DNA of 42,570 nucleotides from Promethearchaeota archaeon. GTDB lineage: Archaea; Asgardarchaeota; Lokiarchaeia; Sigyniarchaeales; SOKP01. How positions within the stretch are numbered: the stretch's first letter is position 1; each line of letters opens with the position of its first letter. The stretch is from assembly GCA_008080735.1 (NCBI GenBank), contig SHMW01000029.1, positions 1-42,570 on the forward strand. The letters run 5' to 3'. Below are positions 412 to 5,023 of the stretch, piece by piece. The notes beneath the pieces were generated by a model. That model worked only from the letters and a program-made list of their open reading frames with translations. It had not been told where the DNA came from and searched no databases. A program made the position numbers and the translations under genes.

Positions 412-2958
412 ACGGACGTCTATTCCATATTATCGCATGATTTTAGAAGGAAAATTCTCCAACTTCTTGAAAACGAGGGTTATATAAGTTATACTGATTT
501 AATGGAGAAAATGGGTCTTGATACTACAGGTCAGCTCAATTTTCACCTAAAAAAATTGGGCTCCTTGGTGGATAAGGATAGCAAATCATATTATTTAACA
601 GAAGACGGAAAACGCGTTCTTAAAATCCTTAATCTAAATAAACGTATTTTGGCTGGAGAGGATATCGATGAATATTTTGATACTAAAGGCTCTGATATTA
701 ATAGGGTAGGTGTAATTATTTGTAATTGTAATACTGAAATTTCAAATGTTGTCAATATTAATTCCTTAGAATCATATATAGGTAAAATTAAAAATGTAGT
801 TTCAGTTAAGATCTTTGCGAACTTATGTCAACAAAAAAATTATTCTCAGATTTCTCGTTGGGTCAAAGAGAATTTTATTAATAAAATTGTAATAGCTGCA
901 TGTTCACCTAAAACCCACCAACCTCTTTTTGAAAAAATCTTTCATGATGTAATCGAATCATCTAATATAGAAATAGCCAATATTCGGGAACAATGTGCAT
1001 GGGTACATCCATCAAACAACACACAAATCGATCCCCTACTTACATTAGAAAAAGCAAAATTATTAATAGAAGCAGCTGTCAAGCGAGTATCTCTACAAAA
1101 AAGTATTAAAGTAAAAAGAGTTGAAGTTGAAAAGAGTTGTGCTGTTATTGGTGGTGGGATTGGTGGAATGACGACCGCTCTTAATTTAGCCCGGTCGGGA
1201 ATCAAGGTGTATTTGATTGAAAAATCTCCTACACTGGGAGGAAAAGTTGCTCGTTGGGACAGAATTTATAATATGGGGGATTGTTCTATATGTTTCATTT
1301 CCGAATTGATCGCGGAGCTTTCCCGTGAAAAGAATATTGAAATACTTACTAATACAGAGGTGACTGATGTATCAGGGGAGGTGGGAAATTTCACTATTGA
1401 ATTAATTAAACAACCGCGATACGTTGATGCTGAAAAGTGTACTGGATGTAAGCAGTGTTTAGAGGTTTGTAGTGTAGAAAAACCAAATCAATACGAATTC
1501 GGATTATCTCCTCGAAAACTTATTTATATACCATTTATTCATTCTTATCCCTATGCACCGACAATCGACCAAGAACATATAAATAAATGTTTAGAATGTA
1601 GAATTTGTGAGAGAGCGTGTGTTAATAATGCCATCGATTTGACAGAAAAGCCAGAGAAAATGCGCATTAAGGTCGGAGCAAAAGTAATCGCGATTGGTGC
1701 TGATCTTACTGATGATCTCAAAGAATATAATTATAATCCACAGAATGATATTATTACTTCTGCAGAGTTTGAAAGAATTCTCTCTTCCGATGGGATAACA
1801 GAGGGAAAATTATTGCGATTATCTGATAAGACGTCTCCGAAAAGCGTCTCAATTATTCAAGATGTAGGACCTTCTGAGTATGAAAACGAATTTAGTGATA
1901 TTATTGCATTGAAATATCTAAACGATATAAAACTCAAAGATCCAGAGTGTGAGGTAAATGTATTTTGCAATCTGAAGCGATATCGAAAAGATCAACAATC
2001 CATGTTAAAGTCAATTGATAGACGATTTTTATATGCAAATGAGATCGAAATAGAACCGAGAGGAGATGGAAACGTAATTATTGCAGATTCAGTGGAATTT
2101 CCTTCAGATTTGATAGTGCTTAACGTTAATCTAGTTCCTAACGAGGATTTGAAAAAATTACGCAAAATTATGGATTTTACTCTGAATGATTATGGATTTA
2201 TGAGTGAGGAGACTTTAGCATCTGGTATATATGGTGTGGGTTCTATTTTTGGCCCCTTAAGCTATCAATCCACAATTGACACAGCGAATAGTGTGGCCCT
2301 TAAAGTGATATCTGTTCTCTCTCAGGATTATCTTATGGCGGAATTTAGCGGAATAGAAGTCGATGAAGATAAATGCGGTTTGTGTGGGCTCTGTGTTAGC
2401 TCTTGTCCATATAATGCTCTTATATTGGAAAATACGAAAATTAGCATAGATAAATTTAAATGTAAAGGATGTGGTGTCTGCGTAAGTGTATGTCCGACTG
2501 ACGCAATTGAAATGAATATCGACAGCTCTGAGAAAATAAACACTACTTTAGAAACCCTATCTAAATTTGATAATGGTCCTAAAATAGTTGCCTTCTGCTG
2601 TAACTCTTGTGGGTACGCAGCCGCAGATGATGCAGGGCTGAAAAGAATACCTTATAAACCCAATGTATTTATAATTAAGGTACCATGTACTGGAAGAGTA
2701 GACGCAAGCTTCATTATTAAAGCATTTGAGTTAGGATTTGATGGAGTAATGGTAGTTGGTTGTAGAAAAGATGCGTGTAGATATATAGATGGTATCCAAA
2801 AAGTAGAAAAAAAAATAGATCTATTAGAAATAAATTTAGGAAAGAAGTATTCCGACCGCGTAATTTTAAAACATATGAACGCGGTGGAAGGGAATAAATT
2901 CGCCGCAAGTATTAATGAATTTTATAAAAAATTAGATGAGGCGGTTCTCATTGAGTAA
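412..2958 (+). CDS. hdrA: Winged-HTH (ArsR-like) / HdrA-like FAD-FeS protein / MvhD (FlpD) triple fusion
   Basis: Frame open from 406 gives DVYSILSHDFRRKILQLL...ISYTDLMEKMGLDTTGQLNFHLKKL...YYLTEDGK (wHTH). HdrA N-domain: RVGVIICNC, AACSP, NIREQCAWVH. FAD motif VIGGGIGG. Four CxxCxxCxxxC ferredoxin motifs. MvhD motifs CCNSCGY, PCTGRVD, GCRKDACRY. First ATG is at 502; ACG at 412 is proposed as the start. Confidence 0.88.
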   Translation, partial: TDVYSILSHDFRRKILQLLENEGYISYTDLMEKMGLDTTGQLNFHLKKLGSLVDKDSKSYYLTEDGKRVLKILNLNKRILAGEDIDEYFDTKGSDINRVGVIICNCNTEISNVVNINSLESYIGKIKNVVSVKIFANLCQQKNYSQISRWVKENFINKIVIAACSPKTHQPLFEKIFHDVIESSNIEIANIREQCAWVHPSNNTQIDPLLTLEKAKLLIEAAVKRVSLQKSIKVKRVEVEKSCAVIGGGIGGMTTALNLARSGIKVYLIEKSPTLGGKVARWDRIYNMGDCSICFISELIAELSREKNIEILTNTEVTDVSGEVGNFTIELIKQPRYVDAEKCTGCKQCLEVCSVEKPNQYEFGLSPRKLIYIPFIHSYPYAPTIDQEHINKCLECRICERACVNNAIDLTEKPEKMRIKVGAKVIAIGADLTDDLKEYNYNPQNDIITSAEFERILSSDGITEGKLLRLSDKTSPKSVSIIQDVGPSEYENEFSDIIALKYLNDIKLKDPECEVNVFCNLKRYRKDQQSMLKSIDRRFLYANEIEIEPRGDGNVIIADSVEFPSDLIVLNVNLVPNEDLKKLRKIMDFTLNDYGFMSEETLASGIYGVGSIFGPLSYQSTIDTANSVALKVISVLSQDYLMAEFSGIEVDEDKCGLCGLCVSSCPYNALILENTKISIDKFKCKGCGVCVSVCPTDAIEMNIDSSEKINTTLETLSKFDNGPKIVAFCCNSCGYAAADDAGLKRIPYKPNVFIIKVPCTGRVDASFIIKAFELGFDGVMVVGCRKDACRYIDGIQKVEKKIDLLEINLGKKYSDRVILKHMNAVEGNKFAASINEFYKKLDEAVLIE

Positions 2959-3715
2959 GCTTAAGTTTTCTATTTCCACCTTAACTTCTTGTAGTGGGTG
3001 TGTGGCATCCCTTATGGCTCTTGATGTATTTCCACAATTTTTAGAACGTACAGAACTTATTTATTTTCCCTTTATGACTGATAGTGAAGAAATTGTAGAA
3101 CATGACATCGCTTTAGTAGAAGGGTGTGTATCAAATCCAAATGATATAGAATTACTCAAAAAAATTAGGACCAATTCTGTTAAGGTCTACGCCTTAGGTT
3201 CTTGTGCTGCATTTGGAGGGATTCTCAGTCTTTCCAACAAAAAGAACGCGGAACCTATAGCAAATTATATAGAAATCGACGGTATGATACCTGGTTGTCC
3301 CCCGGCAGAGAAATTTCTAGGAAATCTACTTATTAGATTAATAGAGAATAAAGAAATTACACTGTCCGAGAAAAATTTATGTGCAACTTGTCCGTTAAGA
3401 GAGACTATGAATCTTTTTAGAACTCCAAAGAGTATCGATACTATCTATTCTAATCCATATGAGTTTTTAGAAAAAAAAGAAGATAGAACGTGTTTTTTAA
3501 ATAGAGGAATTCTGTGTTTGGGGCCAATCACGAGAGATGGATGCGAGCAAAAATGCATTGAAAAGGGAATTCCATGCGAAGGGTGTATGGGCCCGATTTC
3601 TAAAGATTTTACATCAAATGTTGTGAATTTTTTAGGTTTATTTGAAGTATCTGAGAAATTTAAGAAATATAAAGGAATTTATTATCGGTTTTCGAAACCG
3701 CAATTAGAAAAATAA
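2951..3715 (+). CDS. mvhG: Group 3 [NiFe]-hydrogenase small subunit (MvhG-like)
   Basis: CSGC, EG, GSCAAFGG and PGCPP proximal-cluster motifs; C-terminal CATCP...CFL...CLGP...GC...C...PCEGCMGP. TTG at 2951 follows GAGGCGG and overlaps the hdrA stop (ORF track start 2936). Confidence 0.88.
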   Translation: MSKLKFSISTLTSCSGCVASLMALDVFPQFLERTELIYFPFMTDSEEIVEHDIALVEGCVSNPNDIELLKKIRTNSVKVYALGSCAAFGGILSLSNKKNAEPIANYIEIDGMIPGCPPAEKFLGNLLIRLIENKEITLSEKNLCATCPLRETMNLFRTPKSIDTIYSNPYEFLEKKEDRTCFLNRGILCLGPITRDGCEQKCIEKGIPCEGCMGPISKDFTSNVVNFLGLFEVSEKFKKYKGIYYRFSKPQLEK

Positions 3716-3724
3716 GGTGAAATT

Positions 3725-5023
3725 ATGCAAAAAGTTGTTGAGCTATGTAAAAGAGTTGAGGGTCATGGAAAAATAGATATTTACCTTCAAAATGATATCA
3801 TTTCCGAGATTAATTTCGATTTGGCAGCTTACAGAGGGTTTGAAAGTATTTTAAAGAACAAAGACCTACTTGATATTCCGAGAATTGCATCGAGGATATG
3901 CGGTTTGTGTCATGCTTCTCAATCTATTGCTAGTTGTAAGGCTATTGAATCTATTTTCGGGGTACGACCAACAGAGAAATCAATCTTATTAAGACGCTTG
4001 CTAATGATTGGTGAACTCATCAAATCCCATTCAATGCATTTTTTCTTTCAAGCTTTCCCAGATTTATTATATTTATTTGGATATAAGACTAAACCACCTC
4101 AACCAAATGAACTAATACAATTTGACGCTGACTTGACAACAAAATTTTATGAGTTGATTAAAATAGGGAATGATATTGACAGATTATTTGGTGGCAGATC
4201 TATTCATTTAGTAACAACTATTCCGGGATCGACTATCCATAGCAAGACCTTAAAAAATATCAAAATTTCATCCAAATATTTACAGAAGGCGGAAGAGAAT
4301 CTTAATTATATTATAGATCGATTTATAAAATTATTTTCAAAATTTTCTCCTCCTAATTTCTTGGATCTTCACAATCCAATTTATATGAGTCTCAATAATA
4401 ACGAAAGTTATGATAGATATGATGGGAATTTAAAAATGGATTATGGAGATAATAAAATAGTTAAATTCTTTGTCGAAAATTATTTGACATATTTCGATAA
4501 GGATCCAGAATTGCGAGGTATTAATTTTCGCAATGATGAGAGGGTAATTGTGGGACCAATCGCACGTTATAATAATACTAAGAATTTTGTTCAAGAAAAG
4601 TATAGATCCGGAATTAATAAGTTCGACAACACTTGGATCCACAATGGATTATTTTCCAATTTTTTAAGACTTTTAGAGATGGCTCATGAGGTCGAAAGAG
4701 CACTTGATATTATGAACGATCCAATATTGAAAAAACAAGAGGATTATGAGATCCCTAAAAATATTCAAAAAAAGGATGGAATTGGTATAGTTGAGGCTCC
4801 ACGAGGTATTCTGCTCCATCATTATCACTTGGATAAGAATGATAATGTAGATAAAGTCAAACTCTTCATCGCGACCGAAATCAATATTCCCTCTATAAAT
4901 AAAATACTCATGGACTTCTCAAAGGAACTATATAATAAAACTGGGGATATAAATTTAATAAAAGAGAAAGCTCAGATAATTATCAGGTCATTTGATCCAT
5001 GTATTGCCTGCGCTTCACATTAA
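3725..5023 (+). CDS. mvhA: Group 3 [NiFe]-hydrogenase large subunit (MvhA-like), no C-terminal extension
   Basis: RVEGHG; L1 motif RICGLC; HFFFQAFPD; EAPRG; L2 motif DPCIACASH immediately followed by the stop; GGTGA ribosome-binding site at 3716-3720. Confidence 0.92.
   Translation: MQKVVELCKRVEGHGKIDIYLQNDIISEINFDLAAYRGFESILKNKDLLDIPRIASRICGLCHASQSIASCKAIESIFGVRPTEKSILLRRLLMIGELIKSHSMHFFFQAFPDLLYLFGYKTKPPQPNELIQFDADLTTKFYELIKIGNDIDRLFGGRSIHLVTTIPGSTIHSKTLKNIKISSKYLQKAEENLNYIIDRFIKLFSKFSPPNFLDLHNPIYMSLNNNESYDRYDGNLKMDYGDNKIVKFFVENYLTYFDKDPELRGINFRNDERVIVGPIARYNNTKNFVQEKYRSGINKFDNTWIHNGLFSNFLRLLEMAHEVERALDIMNDPILKKQEDYEIPKNIQKKDGIGIVEAPRGILLHHYHLDKNDNVDKVKLFIATEINIPSINKILMDFSKELYNKTGDINLIKEKAQIIIRSFDPCIACASH

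Follow-up and report, generated by a model that had tools for sequence, protein, structure and literature searches.

The stretch of DNA analyzed here (the window) comprises 42,570 nt from a Promethearchaeota archaeon (contig SHMW01000029.1 of assembly GCA_008080735.1). It is a whole contig of a 4.1-Mb, 140-contig assembly that is estimated to be 93% complete with 7% contamination, and the GC content is ~32%. The source records of close homologues are labelled Promethearchaeota or Lokiarchaeota. At the start of the contig there are three tightly packed genes on the same strand. The first encodes a protein in which a winged helix-turn-helix (wHTH) domain, the heterodisulfide reductase subunit HdrA and the subunit MvhD are fused into one chain, and it is followed by the genes for the small (mvhG) and large (mvhA) subunits of a [NiFe]-hydrogenase. 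The HdrA part of the fusion lacks the four cysteine residues of a motif in the thioredoxin-reductase-like (TrxR) domain that are the predicted ligands of the iron-sulfur cluster HA4. The sequence indicates that the loss is selective, with every cofactor site kept except this one.

412..2958, + strand: gene for the wHTH-HdrA-MvhD fusion protein; the frame is open from 406 and gives 848 aa from ACG 412 or 818 aa from the first ATG at 502
2936..3715, + strand: mvhG, [NiFe]-hydrogenase small subunit; Oxidored_q6 family, best solved relative 5odc_E (expectation value, E, 1.6e-35)
3725..5023, + strand: mvhA, [NiFe]-hydrogenase large subunit; matches 5odc_F (E 5e-50), with RICGLC and DPCIACASH intact

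The start of mvhG overlaps the end of the fusion gene by 23 nt. The C-terminus of MvhA (4990-5023) is the His of DPCIACASH, with no cleavable tail, and the orthologous large subunits are 432-434 aa in length and align to the MvhA end, so that the tail-less C-terminus is a family trait. The hydrogenase has the features of group 3c (Mvh-type), namely the RxCGxC and DPCxxCxxH motifs, an Oxidored_q6 small subunit, an MvhD partner, and Mvh proteins as the closest solved relatives. Both MvhA and MvhG score below the NCBIfam cut-offs for VhuA and VhuG, which makes this a divergent member of group 3c.

The fusion protein begins with an ArsR-like winged helix (Pfam DUF7347), continues with HdrA and ends with the fused MvhD, and it has matches to the Pfam FlpD, Fer4 and FAD families. 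Its best solved HdrA relatives are 8RVU, 5ODC and 7BKB, with E values of 1e-114 to 1e-90. The AlphaFold model has a mean predicted local distance difference test score (pLDDT) of 87 and superimposes on solved HdrA with a template modelling score (TM-score) of 0.82-0.85, normalized to the target, while the predicted MvhD domain superimposes on solved structures with a TM-score of 0.84-0.90. The best NCBIfam match is HdrA2 (NF040770), which covers residues 68-813 and reaches 596 bits against a cut-off of 1100 bits. The cut-offs of other curated HdrA-type families in NCBIfam are also missed, with 431 against 1300 bits and 383 against 1400 bits. Conservation was scored in a census of 73 species-representative orthologue loci, ~71 of which cover the segment with the TrxR motif. 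The features of the fusion gene are given below with the residues conserved in the census.

412..660, + strand: ArsR/SmtB-type wHTH domain (DUF7347 E 1.2e-14, HTH_24 E 6e-6)
721..903, + strand: N-terminal domain with C74, C76, C109 and C134, predicted ligands of the shuttle cluster HA3 from alignment to solved HdrA; Cys in 66-68 of 67-68 orthologues
1150..1167, + strand: FAD-binding GxGxxG motif, G217-G222; G217-G219 in 68/68 and G222 in 67/68 orthologues, invariant in alignment A1
1282..1293, + strand: DCSIC, with C261 and C264 equivalent to Cys197 and Cys200 of solved HdrA (role from PMC9012536, PMC13580544); 69/69 orthologues
1438..1620, + strand: inserted ferredoxin domain with two CxxCxxCxxxC motifs (HA5/HA6, the predicted low-potential outlet); all eight Cys in 69/69 orthologues
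1765..1776, + strand: EFER motif, with E424 equivalent to Glu356 of 5ODC; E424 and R425 in 71/71 orthologues
1849..1914, + strand: former HA4 site, S450-K471; D454, E461, S465 and D466 in place of the four Cys, with K471 kept
1948..1950, + strand: C483, the Cys of a DPECEV strand; present in 66/71 HA4-less orthologues
1963..1992, + strand: FCNLKRYRKD, a degenerate form of Y-x-DIR-x-x-GKG (from the alignments and the orthologue census)
2251..2265, + strand: GPLSY in place of GPKDI; Leu at the Lys position in 68/72 orthologues
2374..2493, + strand: C-terminal ferredoxin domain with two CxxCxxCxxxC motifs; all eight Cys in 73/73 orthologues
2584..2955, + strand: fused MvhD domain with C699, C700, C703, C729, C754 and C759 (FlpD E 1.3e-35; 8rvu_F and 5odc_D E 1e-25)

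The former HA4 site

When the fusion protein is aligned by HMMER to the HdrA chains of 8rvu, 8rvv and 5odc, the motif CVGSRD...YCSRVCC lies opposite DVGPSEYE..NEFSDIIA. In the same alignment (M)DIRAFGKG is opposite (C)NLKRYRKD, and GPKDI is opposite GPLSY. The 5ODC numbering was fixed through a canonical paralogue from the same genome aligned to 5odc_A. In this numbering the motif comprises Cys386, Cys399, Cys403 and Cys404, Lys409 comes five residues after the last of these, and the second Glu of ELER is Glu356. The four Cys are the only conserved Cys cluster of the TrxR domain in solved HdrA. With the register anchored on K471 (K501 in alignment A1), C386 becomes D454, C399 becomes E461, C403 becomes S465 and C404 becomes D466, and the loop between the first two positions is 6 residues shorter in the fusion protein. 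The HMMER register is shifted by 3 residues from the Lys-anchored one, and under both there is no Cys at the motif. The initial annotation of this DNA had reported that all four Cys of CVGSR...YCSRVCC are absent from the HdrA at 1840-2310, and alignment to solved HdrA bears this out at each position. The former HA4 site is still a strand-loop-helix in the AlphaFold model, with a pLDDT of ~79-83.

The same replacement is found throughout the orthologues. The first motif position is Cys in 15 of 71 orthologues, and the other three positions are Cys in none, in any register. Within residues 447-482, 43 orthologues have no Cys, 20 have one, eight have two and two have three; none has four. None of the 120 best homologues, which are 65-85% identical and mostly 849 aa long, has the C..CC triplet; the first Cys survives in some of them as IIQCVG. 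By contrast, CVGSR..YCS.VCC, DIR and GPK are all retained in five HdrA paralogues encoded by the window genome. Since the loss is common to all the orthologues and the motif is kept in the paralogues of the same genome, we conclude from comparison of the sequences that loss of HA4 is a trait of a large Lokiarchaeial clade and not decay.

No alternative set of ligands was found when every column of residues 447-482 was scanned in the 73 orthologues; Cys occurs sporadically, and never four times. We considered C483 as a replacement ligand and rejected it, since it is a lone residue where the following strand begins. C483 is absent from canonical HdrA and from those wHTH-bearing relatives that keep the four Cys. 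A restored NAD(P)H site was also rejected, there being no GxGxxG-like motif at the former HA4 loop. The initial annotation had named alternative ligands, or orthologues retaining the motif, as findings that would overturn it; both were sought, and there is neither a substitute set of ligands nor an orthologue with the full motif.

The changes extend to two neighboring motifs, which together with the former HA4 site all fall inside 1840-2310. The Lys of GPK is Leu in the great majority of orthologues, as listed above. In the DIR motif, Ser or Asn takes the place of the Arg in 59 of 71 orthologues, and 61 of 71 retain the Asp; the window protein instead has Asn there. The description of DIRxxG and GPKDI as degenerate is therefore correct for the window protein, and requires amendment for the family, most of which retains the DIR Asp.

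All 22 cluster Cys of the HdrA part that lie outside HA4 (in the N-terminal domain, C261 and C264, and in both ferredoxin domains) are kept in 66-73 of 67-73 orthologues, and the six Cys of the MvhD domain are conserved to the same extent. E424/R425 and K471/Y472, which contain the equivalents of Glu356 and Lys409, are invariant (71/71), and the Lys equivalent to K471 is at least 90% conserved across the 62 diverse HdrA-MvhD proteins of alignment A1. Lys409 lies 3.2 Å from N5 of the flavin (PMC13514486, PMC6405883). The earlier observation that GxGxxG, the (E/F)ER Glu, the following Lys, the N-terminal cluster and both ferredoxin pairs remain is thus upheld across the census.

The timing of the loss can be deduced from more distant relatives. 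In L004 (C-x4-CC) and P0188 the HA4 motif was scored by alignment. Among the 149 nearest cluster representatives at 50% identity, two are fragments that do not reach the site, and in the remaining 147 the four Cys are missing from P0128 alone, a member of the same lineage. P0057, the cluster representative of the window protein's own family, is also without them. Four relatives at 36-42% identity (P0124, P0125, P0126 and P0130) have both the wHTH and the MvhD fusion and keep the four Cys as QC....C..(Y/F)CC. As far as the length of their contigs permits, the operon too can be recognized in these distant relatives, with mvhG and mvhA following in P0125 and P0126, and at least mvhG in P0124. In the maximum-likelihood tree all the wHTH forms group together with a support of 100, and the HA4-less sequences are nested among them as one clade with a support of 99. 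Taken with the four Cys of the basal members, this indicates that the cluster ligands were lost once, after the wHTH fusion and the stand-alone three-gene operon had arisen. The Asp of GPKDI and the DIR motif are already altered in the basal members, and the Lys of GPK is lost in the HA4-less clade only.

The operon is present in at least 73 species-level Lokiarchaeial genomes. Among 40 relatives, many genomes of the same family have an orthologue (43-61% identity) together with a distant Vhu-type large subunit. Four of six genomes of the same genus have no match to the orthologue, three of them having only distant types of large subunit and one no match at all. The orthologue is likewise missing from G032, a closed genome of 4.4 Mb from the same order, whose sole large subunit is of a distant Vhu type. 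The idea that this operon might be the one MvhADG-HdrABC hydrogenase of the cultured strain MK-D1 was dropped. In another closed genome of that order (G033, 3.7 Mb), an open reading frame of 646 aa at G033:C1:3696128-3697864 is 54% identical to residues 1-592, after which it stops. This frame lies away from the mvhA-like gene of that genome, and the family may be represented here by a truncated or split member.

Gene context and the DNA-binding domain

No CCG (HdrB/HdrD) domain is encoded on the 42.6-kb contig, and there is no hdrB or hdrC on the contig or in the conserved operon. About 19 CCG-domain proteins are encoded elsewhere in the genome, some adjoining other HdrA paralogues. The genes mvhG and mvhA come directly after hdrA in every orthologue locus that has room downstream, and no fourth gene is conserved in the operon. 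The downstream membrane protein P0004 was rejected as such a gene, because a single locus of the 73 has it. Nine of the 73 loci have an HdrD-like gene within 6 kb, and in eight of these it is ~0.6 kb or more downstream of mvhA. This too was rejected as a member of the operon, as it belongs to a separate HdrD-like/giant HdrA/MvhD/FrhB cluster that adjoins the operon in two orthologue loci. The proposal in the initial annotation that the HdrBC branch has been selectively lost is well supported by the conservation of the other ligands, the sharing of the loss by all orthologues and the operon without hdrBC.

The separate cluster is conserved and often adjoins the operon. It consists of genes for an HdrD-like protein of ~400 aa with Fer4 and CCG domains, a double HdrA of giant size (1037-1047 aa), MvhD and an FrhB-like protein, and is seen at L009 3509-9494 and L011 1-4096. 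It also lies ~0.6 kb downstream of mvhA in L020, L024, L026, L030, L036, L057, L068 and L081. The window genome carries the cluster on other contigs (C42, C13 and C20).

The mvhA gene of the window encodes the only [NiFe] large subunit found in the assembly by searches with PF00374, PF00346 and PF02906. No group-4 (Complex1_49kDa) or [FeFe] hydrogenase was found, although in an assembly that is 93% complete absence is not proven. The five HdrA paralogues (L002-L006, on contigs C19, C87, C49, C42 and C13) carry one to four in-frame TGA codons at conserved Cys positions, for example as CxU in the N-terminal motif and as DCSIU at the position of Cys200, and are followed by VhuD-like genes. HdrA with multiple selenocysteines has been described for Lokiarchaeota (PMC4989117), matching these paralogues.

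The N-terminal domain of the fusion protein matches DUF7347 above the Pfam cut-off, and its predicted helix-strand pattern has a pLDDT of 84-87. A search of the PDB with the single sequence gave no significant match; a profile was needed, and with it the domain could be matched to the ArsR repressor 1Y0U (E 7.4e-7). T39, G40, N43 and H45 are invariant. The linker between the wHTH and HdrA is of low confidence or disordered in the model, with a pLDDT below 50 at residues 87-94. We regard the N-terminal domain as a true ArsR-type wHTH. This domain, which provides the strongest hint of a sensory function, did not figure in the initial annotation.

Translation of the full wHTH domain requires a start at ACG 412, as there is a TGA at 403-405 and no in-frame ATG, GTG or TTG before 502. 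The aligned start codon in 64 orthologues is ATG in 45, TTG in 12, GTG in two, ATA in three, ACG in one and TTT in one, and the 30 codons before the first ATG are conserved. Given this conservation and the variety of start codons among the orthologues, the wHTH domain is very probably translated in the window genome too. Gene callers truncate the domain in several genomes, giving forms of 816-821 aa.

Upstream of the gene there are repeated short words.

326-331, 347-352 and 376-381, + strand: three direct TT[AG]TCA words, a candidate operator or promoter element identified in the sequence

In 65 orthologue upstream regions there are 85 copies of TT[AG]TCA compared with 20.6 +/- 4.3 in shuffles, an enrichment of ~4-fold that is overstated because the sequences are related. 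The word ranks first among 60 words of the same composition and is concentrated between -140 and -60. This enrichment fits an operator, and equally a promoter element. The palindrome TTGAC-N2-GTCAA was rejected as a conserved operator, being present in 0 of 64 orthologue upstream regions. Palindromes of the form TTATCA-N3-TGATAA lie upstream in some loci (upstream regions L016-L088).

Electron flow and competing explanations

The TrxR-domain cluster HA4 lies on the high-potential route from the FAD to HdrC and HdrB (PMC13580544, PMC9012536, PMC13518236). In current structural models, the [2Fe-2S] cluster of MvhD feeds electrons to the FAD; the first, high-potential electron then leaves via HA4, and the low-potential electron leaves via the N-terminal shuttle cluster HA3 to HA5 and HA6 (PMC13580544, PMC13518236). 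In the present system we suggest that MvhA, MvhG and the wHTH-HdrA-MvhD protein form a self-contained complex. Canonical HdrA contains six [4Fe-4S] clusters; in the fusion protein five would be expected, in addition to the [2Fe-2S] of MvhD. HA4 is the only HdrA cluster that links the flavin to HdrC and HdrB, and so without it the flavin would be deprived of its only high-potential outlet, and H2-driven bifurcation to heterodisulfide should be impossible. What would be left is a linear chain that runs from the [NiFe] site through the MvhG clusters, the MvhD [2Fe-2S], the FAD and HA3 to the clusters of the ferredoxin domains. In a fermentative or syntrophic Lokiarchaeon the flow would most plausibly be downhill, with reduced ferredoxin as the donor for H2 formation when H2 pressure is low. 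On its flexible tether, the ArsR-type wHTH may in addition confer redox-dependent binding to DNA; HdrA is dimeric in the solved complexes. On balance we think it probable that the complex is an H2/ferredoxin-type module that is at once independent of HdrBC and non-bifurcating.

Several considerations weigh against this conclusion. The four TrxR-domain Cys are taken to be the HA4 ligands from their position in that domain and their adjacency to Lys409, and the content of FAD and clusters is predicted from ligand residues. HdrBC-type partners encoded in trans are possible, given the number of CCG-domain proteins in the genome. Retention of the equivalents of Glu356 and Lys409 could mean that bifurcation persists with another acceptor that reaches the FAD directly. 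While the operon is widespread, its distribution is patchy even within a genus, and so it is not core energy metabolism for all the relatives. We are less sure of which way the electrons run, and of which carrier is the partner, than of independence from HdrBC and absence of bifurcation taken jointly.

The initial annotation had suggested a sensory or non-bifurcating role; the loss of the branch on which this was founded is well supported, and the choice between the two roles rests on inference. If sensory, the complex would be a transcription factor responsive to H2 or redox state, in the manner of PutA or the regulatory hydrogenases, in which the chain reports the state of H2 and ferredoxin to the wHTH. 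The HdrBC branch would have been lost since turnover to a disulfide is not needed, and the wHTH would control its own or other promoters. We consider this unlikely overall, yet it accounts for a number of the observations. Conservation of the wHTH extends over the whole clade, even to members at 33-41% identity; residues of its recognition helix are invariant, the domain matches an ArsR repressor by its profile, and it is borne on a flexible linker. The enrichment of TT[AG]TCA upstream of the orthologues suggests putative operators, and it might be that a dimeric wHTH binds them according to the reduction state of the flavin or clusters, although we put this forward only tentatively. The large subunit that stops at the His without a tail would also be in keeping with a sensor, and in many relatives the second, Vhu-type hydrogenase could perform the metabolic work. 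However, all sixteen Cys of the ferredoxin domains, the output of the chain, are perfectly conserved, which is more than a sensor would seem to need, and in the window genome this is the only hydrogenase found in the 93%-complete assembly. Moreover, the TTGAC-N2-GTCAA palindrome is not conserved, and the enriched word could be an ordinary promoter element whose enrichment is inflated by the relatedness of the orthologues. An enzyme that is also a regulator, like PutA, would be compatible with the H2/ferredoxin module that we favor, and we regard this combined function as possible rather than probable.

It could also be supposed that the complex still bifurcates, a new high-potential acceptor reaching the flavin directly, or by way of a trans-encoded partner at the former dock for HdrC. 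In support of this the equivalents of Glu356 and Lys409 are invariant, and the Lys at flavin N5 has been discussed as a hallmark of bifurcation (PMC6405883, PMC13514486). The low-potential route is intact, many CCG-domain proteins of the genome are unassigned, and the HA4-less clade has acquired a conserved Cys, C483. Yet no fourth gene is conserved with the operon, the former HA4 site has not regained a motif for dinucleotide binding, and the GPKDI Lys and DIR Arg have been lost as well. The basal relatives that keep four Cys are also without hdrBC nearby, so that independence from HdrBC may predate the loss of the cluster. We judge continued bifurcation to be quite improbable. Hardly any credence can be given to strain-specific decay, a pseudogene or an artefact of assembly. 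The full-length form in the window genome does lack a canonical start codon, and there is an estimated 7% contamination of the assembly, but the gene has an uninterrupted reading frame, identity to the closest homologue is 85%, and ~190 orthologues share the substitutions, which are flanked by invariant residues. The 30 codons that precede the ATG are conserved, and TTG, GTG, ATA and ACG starts are found in other orthologues.

Relation to known systems

Fusions of HdrA with MvhD, and of HdrA with HdrA, have been catalogued in Asgard archaea (PMC11237513), and papers on these organisms treat the group 3c hydrogenase together with Hdr as a bifurcating or confurcating MvhADG-HdrABC complex (PMC7015854, PMC11291895). 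Metabolic reconstructions read any set of Mvh and HdrA in this way, and such models feed into hypotheses of hydrogen syntrophy for the origin of eukaryotes. Our analysis suggests that a widespread Asgard complex probably does not perform classical H2-driven bifurcation, its usual annotation. An HdrA with no known route to HdrBC requires a different model of the energetics and of the coupling to H2. A search of open-access papers and preprints revealed no description of the wHTH-HdrA-MvhD family or of its loss of HA4, and open-access searches on DUF7347 and on Asgard HdrA with a helix-turn-helix similarly found none.

The family could serve as a natural 'branch-deleted' bifurcase. The Lys at flavin N5 and the low-potential path are both kept, and it would provide a clean test of each when there is no high-potential outlet. 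In the open-access literature searched, no earlier case is described of a conserved fusion between a DNA-binding domain and a flavoprotein that is bound to a hydrogenase. If the sensory function were true, a whole [NiFe]-hydrogenase/flavoprotein complex would act as an Asgard transcription factor, with a bifurcase turned into a reporter of redox state. PutA is a flavoenzyme with a DNA-binding domain, in which the redox state of the FAD switches DNA binding, and the group 2b regulatory [NiFe]-hydrogenases couple a redox enzyme to the control of transcription. The analogy with both is functional only, as neither is homologous to the fusion protein.

The HdrA2-MvhD fusions (NF040770, Methanosarcina type) have in common with the window protein the fusion of HdrA to MvhD. 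HdrA2 works with HdrB2C2. The canonical fusion representatives examined keep the four Cys, and the window protein falls far below the cut-off of their family. With the HA4 Cys motif and the partnership with HdrBC both missing, and scores below the NCBIfam cut-offs, its sequence is best filed as an HdrA/Mvh variant and not as a subunit of heterodisulfide reductase.

The MvhAGD-HdrABC complex of hydrogenotrophic methanogens (5ODC, 8RVU, 7BKB) has the same order of HdrA domains, with an N-terminal cluster domain, the TrxR/FAD domain, and inserted and C-terminal ferredoxin domains, and the FAD motif, Glu356, Lys409 and Cys197/200 are common to both. The Lokiarchaeial form differs in lacking the HA4 Cys, in its shorter loop and degenerate DIR and GPKDI motifs, and in an operon without hdrBC. 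It differs further in the fusion of MvhD to HdrA, the added wHTH and the tail-less MvhA.

In anaerobic methanotrophic archaea (ANME), more HdrA homologues than HdrBC have been reported; the FAD residues persist in these homologues, and the retention of FeS-binding Cys and of whole domains varies (Chadwick et al. 2022, PMC9012536). Those paralogues are mostly without a hydrogenase partner, whereas the Lokiarchaeial variant is tied to MvhAG, has lost the TrxR cluster alone, and is fused to a wHTH. The TrxR-fold FAD core is also present in the sHdrA of Hyphomicrobium denitrificans (6TJR), with a target-normalized TM-score of 0.79 (E 2.4e-10). At 340-349 residues, that protein amounts to a minimal HdrA core and has neither the ferredoxin nor the N-terminal domains. 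The window protein is the opposite case, in which the peripheral clusters have been kept and the core cluster has been lost.

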